Positions 14,690 through 14,869 of a DNA stretch of 20,000 nt are shown in pieces. The translations under genes and the position numbers were made by a program. The notes beneath the pieces were generated by a model that was given only the letters and a program-made list of their open reading frames with translations, was not told where the DNA came from and searched no databases. Source of the DNA: Candidatus Heimdallarchaeum endolithica (GTDB lineage Archaea > Asgardarchaeota > Heimdallarchaeia > Heimdallarchaeales > Heimdallarchaeaceae); the NCBI GenBank assembly GCA_021513715.1, contig CP084167.1, forward strand, positions 2,815,060 through 2,835,059, in the 5' to 3' direction. The stretch's first letter is position 1. Each line of letters starts with the position of its first letter.

Positions 14690-14869
14690 TCTAATGGCAA
14701 TTTCAGGTTCGGAATGAGTCTGAGTGTTGCCCTGCCGCTATGGCCGCGACGAATCGCAGCGAATGGCCGTTCCCAAGTGCTCTCGCAACTTAGTACAGGA
14801 CCACACGCTGGCAGGCTTAACTTTCCCGAGTTTCTGGAACACATCCAGATCCTTTCTGCTGCCATTAGA
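14690..14869 (-). rRNA. Circularly permuted 5S rRNA precursor (core 14702-14822; 3' half 14754-14822, UUCG linker 14750-14753, 5' half 14702-14749)
   Basis: The 3'-half signature AGTTAAGCCTGCCAGCGTGTGGTCCTGTACT...GCGAGAGC...TTGGGAACGGCCAT precedes the 5'-half signature GCGGCCATAGCGGCAGGGCAACACTCAGACTCATTCCGAACC. Helix I is GCTGCGA-TTCG-TCGCGGC. Helix II is GCGGCAGG/CCTGCC(A)GC. Helix IV is GTGGTC/GGCCAT. Helix V is CTAAG-TGC-GAGA-GCA-CTTGG. External stem TCTAATGGCAG/TTGCCATTAGA joins the new ends. Confidence 0.87.

Follow-up and report, generated by a model that had tools for sequence, protein, structure and literature searches.

According to the publication of the complete Heimdallarchaeum genomes, various approaches failed to predict 5S genes (PMC8813620), and the question is how these archaea encode a 5S ribosomal RNA (rRNA). 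The stretch of DNA analysed here, called the window, comprises 20,000 nucleotides (nt) of Candidatus Heimdallarchaeum endolithica (contig CP084167.1, positions 2,815,060 to 2,835,059), and all positions below are counted within it unless a locus is named. Within 14869-14690, on the minus strand, lies a free-standing 5S rRNA gene that is circularly permuted. The transcript order is leader, 3′ half, a helix I closed by UUCG, 5′ half and trailer; the natural 5S ends are joined and the new ends fall in loop C. Leader and trailer are predicted to form a bulge-helix-bulge (BHB), and we consider it probable, at roughly 0.78, that the RNA is excised at this motif and ligated into a 121-nt circle. The parts of the gene are as follows.

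14702 to 14822, minus strand: permuted 5S rRNA, predicted to be excised and circularised as a 121-nt product (from Rfam half-matches, circular fold and rotated alignment)
14821-14754, minus strand: 3′ half, with the 3′ part of loop C, helices II, V and IV, and the 3′ strand of helix I
14753-14750, minus strand: UUCG tetraloop capping helix I
14749-14702, minus strand: 5′ half, with the 5′ strand of helix I, loop A, helices II and III, and CCGAAC

The 3′ half reads GUUAAGCC...GUAC...UGGGAA...GCUGCGA and the 5′ half UCGCGGCCAUAGCGG...CCGAAC-CUGAAA; the diagnostic bases of the window type include CCAGCG and GGUCCUGUAC. At the curated (gathering) threshold of 38 bits, the Rfam model RF00001 made no 5S call on the genomic sequence. 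A permissive search with the same model returned 31 bits at 14751-14875, where only the 3′ half is truly aligned, and 13.6 bits at 14701-14725 (model positions 27-51). The half-matches are separate and in the wrong order, indicating that the gene is circularly permuted, and a sub-threshold score is what such a gene is expected to give. Two conventional 5S genes used for comparison, L022 and L024, reached 78.4 and 78.3 bits, respectively, over the full model. The predicted circles of the window and its homologues were opened in the helix I loop and aligned with these two genes. The rotated and ligated sequences are colinear with L022 and L024 along the whole length, with the ligation junction exactly at loop C. 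RNAalifold on the rotated alignment recovered the usual helices I-V with 32 consensus pairs, 26 of which show compensatory changes. Once rotated, the conserved blocks CAUAGC (loop A), CCGAAC...GUUAAGC (loop C) and GUAC...GGGAA stand in their usual order, and the circular fold of the predicted product is the 5S three-way junction.

How the two halves might be brought into a continuous loop C is suggested by the flanks. An initial annotation of the window had described an 11-base pair (bp) stem between leader and trailer and, near the new 5S ends, a CGGG/CCTG helix with an AAA on each strand; every coordinate and pairing of these elements was correct on recheck.

14859 to 14869, minus strand: 5′ strand of the outer stem, TCTAATGGCAG, pairing with 14700-14690; present in the minimum free energy (MFE) structure
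14690 to 14700, minus strand: 3′ strand of the outer stem, TTGCCATTAGA, beginning directly after the 3′ bulge
14853 to 14858, minus strand: CAGAAA linker, holding a competing register of CAG plus AAA
14829 to 14853, minus strand: leader hairpin, core stem TCTGGA/TCCAGA (14849-14833) with loop TGTGT, from a constrained fold
14825 to 14828, minus strand: 5′ strand of the central BHB helix, CGGG, pairing with CCTG 14707-14704
14822 to 14824, minus strand: 5′ bulge AAA, predicted cut between 14823 and 14822
14704 to 14707, minus strand: 3′ strand of the central BHB helix, CCTG; in the mature fold CUGA 14706-14703 would pair instead with UCAG as helix III
14701 to 14703, minus strand: 3′ bulge AAA, predicted cut between 14702 and 14701

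The outer stem contains 10 Watson-Crick pairs and one terminal G.U, and the central helix three G-C pairs and one G.U. In the constrained fold the leader hairpin is closed by A14853-U14829 and G14852-C14830 and directly abuts the central helix. The two AAA bulges lie on opposite strands at opposite ends of the central helix, giving the core of a BHB: two 3-nt bulges on opposite strands with exactly 4 bp between them. This geometry, with its AA↓A cut (the arrow marks the cleavage site), is shared with the intron of a tRNA gene in the window.

14468 to 14558, minus strand: tRNA-His(GUG) with a 16-nt intron (14521-14506) at position 37/38; the CCA end is encoded

The tRNA-His gene is on the same strand as the 5S gene, 130 nt downstream. 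Its intron sits in a BHB of the standard kind (helix CTGT 14527-14524 / GCAG 14511-14508, bulges GG↓G and AA↓A), indicating that the organism uses and needs BHB splicing machinery. For the 5S motif, cleavage after the second bulge base was assumed from this intron and from established knowledge of BHBs. Cutting AA↓A on both sides would release the 121-nt piece running from 14822 to 14702, the joined ends of which read CCGAAC-CUGAAA-GUUAAGC.

Evidence from the window alone is only suggestive of a BHB. A stem of at least 11 bp (G.U allowed) between two A+T-rich 60-nt flanks arose in 206 of 5000 shuffles (~4%), a 4-bp helix at one fixed register has a chance of ~0.02, and a brute-force BHB scan found BHB-like arrangements with flanking helices of at least 4 bp to be frequent by chance in A+T-rich flanks. 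The precursor as a whole is more stable than its own shuffles (z = -3.27, 0/200). Because chance arrangements are so common, the BHB motif by itself was not taken as evidence; what counts is only that the motif covaries and keeps a constant place with respect to the 5S core.

Homologues were collected with a pattern demanding the permuted order of the conserved 5S blocks, and then by synteny with a DUF1512 gene. The pattern search yielded two loci in Candidatus H. aukensis and five true loci in metagenomes. Two further matches, L004 (Acidimicrobiia) and L007, were rejected as ordinary bacterial 23S-5S spacers followed by normal 5S genes, and in the synteny check no 5S was present within 2.5 kb in L012-L017, which encode close relatives of the L006 DUF1512 protein. 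In all, 14 permuted homologues with 11 kinds of flank were obtained. Heimdallarchaeum contributes two paralogues, and the other loci are on contigs labelled Njord-, Odin-, Loki-, Hel- and Hodarchaeota; these lineage names are the labels attached by database sources to neighbouring proteins.

The comparison of these loci offers what we regard as the decisive support for the predicted BHB. The 4-bp helix is 100% paired, with compensatory changes, and both bulges are kept in all 14 homologues, so that the 4-bp-centred BHB put forward in the initial annotation has withstood the conservation check proposed with it, for the covarying outer helices (below) as well as for the bulges. The 3′ bulge is 3 nt long (AAA, GAA or AGA) and at the same place throughout; the 5′ bulge is AAA or AGA at loci with the window's cut site and AAU, AUU or ACU in the Loki-, Hel- and ‘Hod’-labelled loci. 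Nine loci have the window's breakpoint, A|GUUAAGC (L003, L005, L002, L008, L010, L009, L023, L025 and L026). Across all nine the central helix is fully paired (100% of cells) and two of the four pairs are changed on both sides, the variants being CGGG/CCUG, CAGG/CCUG and CGUG/CACG.

The flanks around this constant motif differ widely. L003 and L005 are orthologues of the window copy, and a C>T substitution in the outer stem 5′ strand of L005 keeps a U.G pair. The second Heimdallarchaeum paralogue (L002, L008 and L010) has a leader and a trailer unrelated to those of the window and reads GUGGU-CAGG-AAA-GUUAAGC and CCUG-AAA-ACCAC, with a 5-bp outer helix directly adjacent to the central helix. 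L009, a more divergent relative, keeps the stem-hairpin-helix architecture of the window. The Njordarchaeota-labelled L023 combines a 9-bp outer helix with CGUG/CACG and bulges AGA and GAA, and the 10-bp outer helices of the Odinarchaeia-labelled L025 and its relative L026 differ by compensatory changes. The leader hairpins GGATGTGTTCC, GGATGCGATCC and GGATGTTTCC are homologous across all three Heimdallarchaeum-type leaders. Their conserved cores (GGAUGUGUUCC, GGAUGCGAUCC and GGAUGUUUCC in the window, L002 and L009) are located just upstream of the central helix, and the rest of each leader differs; the hairpin is possibly a folding aid, a stand-in for the outer helix or a protein site.

A second breakpoint class, with the motif placed 2 nt further along (G|UUAAGC), comprises the five Loki-, Hel- or Hodarchaeota-labelled loci; a Lokiarchaeota-labelled genome thus carries the same permuted 5S design. 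The outer helix of these loci, 7 bp long, is paired throughout (100%), and six of its seven pairs are changed on both sides. The whole structure in these loci is 94% paired, compared with 73% in shuffles (0/500 reach the observed value) and 31-39% in slid controls. Over both classes, an outer helix of 5-10 bp is contiguous with the central helix, as in the strict form, in 11/14 homologous loci, and outer stems of unrelated sequence are present in every other flank type. In L002/L008/L010, L006, L011 and L021, which are six loci representing four flank types, folding the precursor without constraints is enough to give an MFE structure with the BHB.

The predicted products are equally uniform. 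The initial annotation had derived from AA↓A cuts and ligation a 121-nt circle reading CCGAAC-CUGAAA-GUUAAG, in which six nucleotides, the usual spacing, separate the loop C blocks. Recomputation returned the same product for the window, and in 13/14 homologous loci the predicted circles are 121-124 nt long with a junction that rebuilds the six nucleotides followed by (G/A)UUAAGC. In L006 and L021 it is the 3′ end of the transcript that contributes the conserved G of GUUAAGC. A GUUAAGC split in this way is hard to explain unless the ends are joined, the simplest reading being selection on the joined sequence. The exception is L011 (2030-2182, minus strand; Helarchaeota), for which a 153-nt circle with a 32-nt hairpin insert in loop C is predicted. 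A possible nested BHB would form in L011 only across the ligation junction (CAG|U / ACUG, bulges UAU and UAA, plus hairpin), and its product would carry two extra A in GUUAAAAGC. Four nucleotides alone close helix I in every case, as UUCG in the window and 11 loci, as UGCG in two loci and as UUUG in one.

From these features a processing pathway can be proposed for the window copy. The leader and trailer would pair over 11 bp and, together with the leader hairpin, form a three-way junction presenting the BHB C14828-G14825 / C14707-G14704. The tRNA-splicing endonuclease EndA, which cuts BHB bulges after the second base, would be expected from archaeal biochemistry to cleave AA↓A between 14823 and 14822 and between 14702 and 14701. 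The RtcB ligase, which ligates the ends left by EndA, would then join A14702 to A14822, a reaction known from excised introns and pre-rRNAs, and yield a 121-nt covalently closed RNA with loop C restored, in which CUGA 14706-14703 would swap the leader CGGG for UCAG and thereby form helix III. The Asgard EndA is reported to be of the (αβ)2 type with broad specificity and to have the L1 loop insert, which permits relaxed BHB motifs (PMC5829648). Such tolerance matters for the 5S motifs since they have no real inner helix and the window-type copies carry a 30-nt insert.

Several observations weigh against excision and circularisation at this site. On the 5′ strand of the window copy, the outer stem does not run directly into the central helix; a 30-nt insert with the hairpin separates them and makes the three-way junction, and the same hairpin-bearing insert is found in L003, L005 and L009. 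No inner helix (h′) is formed past the bulges, where only G.A, U-A and U.G are possible, and the homologues are equally weak. With a non-contiguous outer stem and a weak h′, the window motif is a relaxed BHB and not a strict hBHBh′. One of the four central pairs is, moreover, the G.U mentioned above. The MFE structure of the window pairs the leader UCGGG with the loop C UCCGA and lacks the central helix, and the BHB conformer is less stable by 4.8 kcal/mol in the window and by 2.9 in the orthologues. Thermodynamics was not used as support for the window copy, since the MFE structure misses the central helix. The standard-form BHB of L011 leaves a 32-nt hairpin in loop C and sets a precedent for the alternative product named in the initial annotation. 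The sample of homologues is small and biased by the motif pattern and by synteny, and transcription, cleavage, ligation and final form are all predictions from sequence.

The initial annotation had itself pointed to a competing register beside the stem, in which CAG 14858-14856 pairs with CTG 14706-14704 and is followed by AAA 14855-14853. If this helix were used first, cuts between 14854 and 14853 and between 14702 and 14701 would yield a 152-nt circle with the leader hairpin in loop C, either as the final product or to be recut. In the latter case ligation would rebuild CCUG-AAA-GG..hairpin..CU-CGGG-AAA, and a second BHB would deliver the same 121-nt circle along with a 31-nt circular by-product. 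The register does exist, a similar CAG-NAA follows the outer stem in L009, and in the 152-nt circle the CGGG/CCUG conformer is within 0.5 kcal/mol of the minimum. The L011 locus, with the hairpin included by its standard-form BHB and a possible nested BHB only after ligation, also speaks for it. However, the first-step helix has only three pairs (the fourth would be A.C), which gives the wrong bulge spacing for a BHB. Neither the paralogue nor the Njord, Odin and Loki/Hel loci contain the register, and in all of them the primary site is occupied by a single BHB with an adjacent outer helix. Thirteen of the 14 homologous loci are also free of any permanent 31-nt loop C insert; we judge this route quite unlikely. 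The absence of an adjacent outer helix, the G.U in the central helix and a BHB conformer that is not the MFE could alternatively mean that the window-type copy is a decaying, unprocessed paralogue and that the second copy, with its adjacent outer helix, is the functional gene. Such decay is highly unlikely given that the precursor is 99.4% identical between the window and Candidatus H. aukensis while the adjoining spacers have diverged to 83.7% and 92.5%. The 5S core is also intact, the stem-hairpin-helix architecture is retained in the more divergent L009, and the L005 substitution preserves pairing in the outer stem. The only point in favour of an assembly artefact, or of the junction of two tandem 5S copies, is that the halves stand in an unusual order. 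No 5S sequence occurs in the flanks, and the same arrangement, covarying helices included, recurs in several lineages, in several independent metagenome assemblies and in one closed genome, making this explanation hardly credible.

Two other accounts accept cleavage at the BHB and depart from the predicted circle afterwards. The RNA might be cut or trimmed without ligation, leaving a linear, permuted mature 5S with its ends in loop C. A 5S permuted at the product level does occur in nature, in brown-algal mitochondria (PMC4267664), a nick in loop C might be tolerated, and no DNA feature proves ligation. Against this, BHB cleavage leaves ends that RtcB can ligate, and the BHB-excised archaeal RNAs studied so far (tRNA introns, pre-16S and pre-23S) are circularised. 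The cut sites moreover keep the exact length of loop C, and L006 and L021 split GUUAAGC between both ends. An Rfam scan of 14400-15000 with E up to 10 found no 5S-type family besides RF00001, which also counts against a mitochondrial-type molecule assuming that the library includes the permuted mitochondrial 5S model; Valach et al. 2014 announced that the model was to be deposited in Rfam (PMC4267664). An unligated product is on these grounds very unlikely. More plausible, and still unlikely, is a circle that serves as an intermediate only, opened again within the helix I loop so that a conventional linear 5S results. A circle that is later opened is the maturation route of permuted tRNA genes and archaeal pre-rRNAs, and to our knowledge all 5S rRNAs characterised so far are linear. 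The helix I join, however, is always a bare 4-nt loop with neither an intervening sequence nor a secondary nuclease motif, and a stable tetraloop conserved across classes suggests a permanent cap. Circular 23S rRNA has in addition been reported inside archaeal ribosomes (PMC12918454). The conserved UUCG/UGCG-type cap leaves no room for a reopening signal, and on this account we lean somewhat towards the circle itself being the mature ribosomal 5S.

Processing of the proposed kind has partial parallels in known systems. Circularly permuted tRNA genes were reportedly described in Cyanidioschyzon merolae by Soma and colleagues in 2007 and are said to occur also in the archaeon Thermofilum pendens. 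The intervening sequence between the natural ends of such tRNAs is removed by RNase P and tRNase Z. The 5S gene resembles them in having the 3′ half upstream of the 5′ half and a leader-trailer BHB at the interrupted loop (in part as summarised in PMC4267664). The endonuclease and ligation steps producing a circular RNA with a restored loop are likewise shared, for 5S as a prediction drawn from the DNA. It differs in that the RNA is 5S rRNA and that a bare 4-nt tetraloop joins the natural ends, so the circle may be the end product.

Archaeal pre-16S and pre-23S likewise have a leader-trailer processing stem with a BHB, presumably rely on the same enzymes and give rise to circular rRNA, which for 5S is a prediction (PMC12918454; PMC7758197), and circular or permuted 23S has been found in mature archaeal ribosomes (PMC12918454; PMC7758197). 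Unlike the permuted 5S gene, in which ligation would repair an internal loop, those genes are colinear and ligation joins the natural ends. 5S itself is stated not to be processed by BHB circularisation in the species studied (PMC12918454). The permuted mitochondrial 5S of brown algae and other stramenopiles also has a closed hairpin in place of helix I, and its gene is likewise missed by standard 5S models (Valach et al. 2014, PMC4267664). It differs in that the mitochondrial product stays permuted, with its ends at the alpha/gamma domain junction and without BHB or ligation (PMC4267664). Low-abundance 5S circles of Sulfolobus and Halobacterium are, as predicted here, circular 5S-derived archaeal RNAs (Danan et al. 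2012, PMC3326292). Those circles, however, are rare, come from conventional genes, lack validation by reverse transcription PCR and are perhaps degradation or side products (PMC3326292). An engineered circularly permuted E. coli 5S, an artificial RNA that is linked into 23S rRNA, suggests that 5S can function with its natural ends closed and new ends at another place (PMC7283268).

In the full-text literature searched, which does not take in most subscription journals, a permuted or circular archaeal 5S gene is nowhere described. If the proposed pathway holds, the window would contain the first permuted rRNA gene in a cellular (non-organelle) genome and encode the first natural circular 5S. 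BHB-dependent repair of permuted genes would be extended from tRNA to ribosomal RNA, and a circular 5S would be predicted in the ribosome, alongside the recent reports of circular 23S. The permuted arrangement would also explain the reported failure to detect 5S in the complete Heimdallarchaeum genomes (PMC8813620). Asgard genomes are likely marked as lacking 5S because RF00001 annotation scores the permuted loci below threshold. Whether many Asgard archaea, including Heimdallarchaeia, have dispensed with a conventional 5S gene and carry in their ribosomes a circular 5S made from a permuted gene by the tRNA-splicing machinery is in our estimate an even bet. Heimdallarchaeia are the closest known relatives of eukaryotes. 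The presence or absence of permutation, together with the breakpoint, would provide a discrete and phylogenetically informative character within the archaeal group from which eukaryotes are presumed to originate.

Conventional 5S genes are found at the syntenic site upstream of DUF1512 in a Thorarchaeota-labelled contig (L022 524-642) and in a Bathyarchaeia contig (L024 3794-3913), which indicates that the permuted form is derived and not universal in Asgard archaea. The two breakpoints, together with the normal gene in the Thor-labelled contig, imply either repeated origin or migration of the splice site. A 5S gene, normal or permuted, stands beside a cluster of DUF1512, a hypothetical gene and a cytidylyltransferase-like gene in the Bathyarchaeia contig and in six Asgard-labelled lineages (L006, L011, L018, L020, L021, L022, L023, L024, L025 and L026). 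The synteny is ancient and hints that DUF1512 and 5S are functionally linked. In the window, only a cytidylyltransferase-like open reading frame (ORF; 15016-15534, plus strand) adjoins the 5S gene. The close relatives L006 (5056-5176) and L011 (2030-2182) have the 5S unit in opposite orientations relative to the DUF1512 gene. In both, a 12-bp inverted repeat (GGUUUAGAUUUG / CAAAUCUAAACC) bounds the unit and forms its outer stem; L011 shows a compensatory change in it, and the repeat could mediate inversion.

Putative signals for transcription of the 5S unit were assigned by eye from the sequence.

14909 to 14916, minus strand: TATA-like box TTTTTAAA, a putative archaeal promoter for the 5S unit; a conserved GCCTA follows ~22 nt downstream
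14886 to 14894, minus strand: GCCTATTGC, conserved start of the leader and probable transcription start region
14659 to 14684, minus strand: T-rich tract TATTTTCTTTTAAGATTTTTAATTT, putative oligo-T terminator

In the paralogous copy L002, ATATATTA is spaced from GCCTA exactly as the TATA-like box is in the window, and GCCTA is common to the otherwise unrelated leaders of both Heimdallarchaeum paralogues. T-runs occur 3′ of the trailer in other loci as well. tRNA genes follow the permuted 5S also in L018, L020, L025 and L026, and the 5S-tRNA cluster may be co-transcribed. An ORF of 85 amino acids (14671-14928, minus strand) merely overlaps the 5S RNA gene and was not counted as a gene.

The window is A+T-rich (G+C ~32%) and aligns with the closed genome of Candidatus Heimdallarchaeum aukensis (CP084166.1) at 94% identity across 6.3 kb. 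In addition to a PEP synthase, it encodes the following.

11008-14355, minus strand: GatD/GatE
15514-16035 and 16627-17154, minus strand: two Ras-family small GTPases, a family typical of Asgard genomes
18275-19621, plus strand: TnpB / Cas12f1-like (IS605 OrfB) ORF

Sub-threshold matches to the Rfam transfer-messenger RNA (tmRNA) model (16-28 bits) lie beside the permuted 5S in L006 (6182-6354), L011 (1709-1791), L018 (3232-3296), L020 (3136-3304) and L023 (3290-3492), and ARAGORN made no call at any of these five. Possible explanations are tRNA-like genes broken up by large or multiple introns, or tRNAs disrupted in some other way. In L014, a tRNA match extends over 171 nt (177-347). Beside the second Heimdallarchaeum 5S copy, L002 encodes a gyrase A subunit (282-4091, plus strand) with an intein bearing a LAGLIDADG homing endonuclease.

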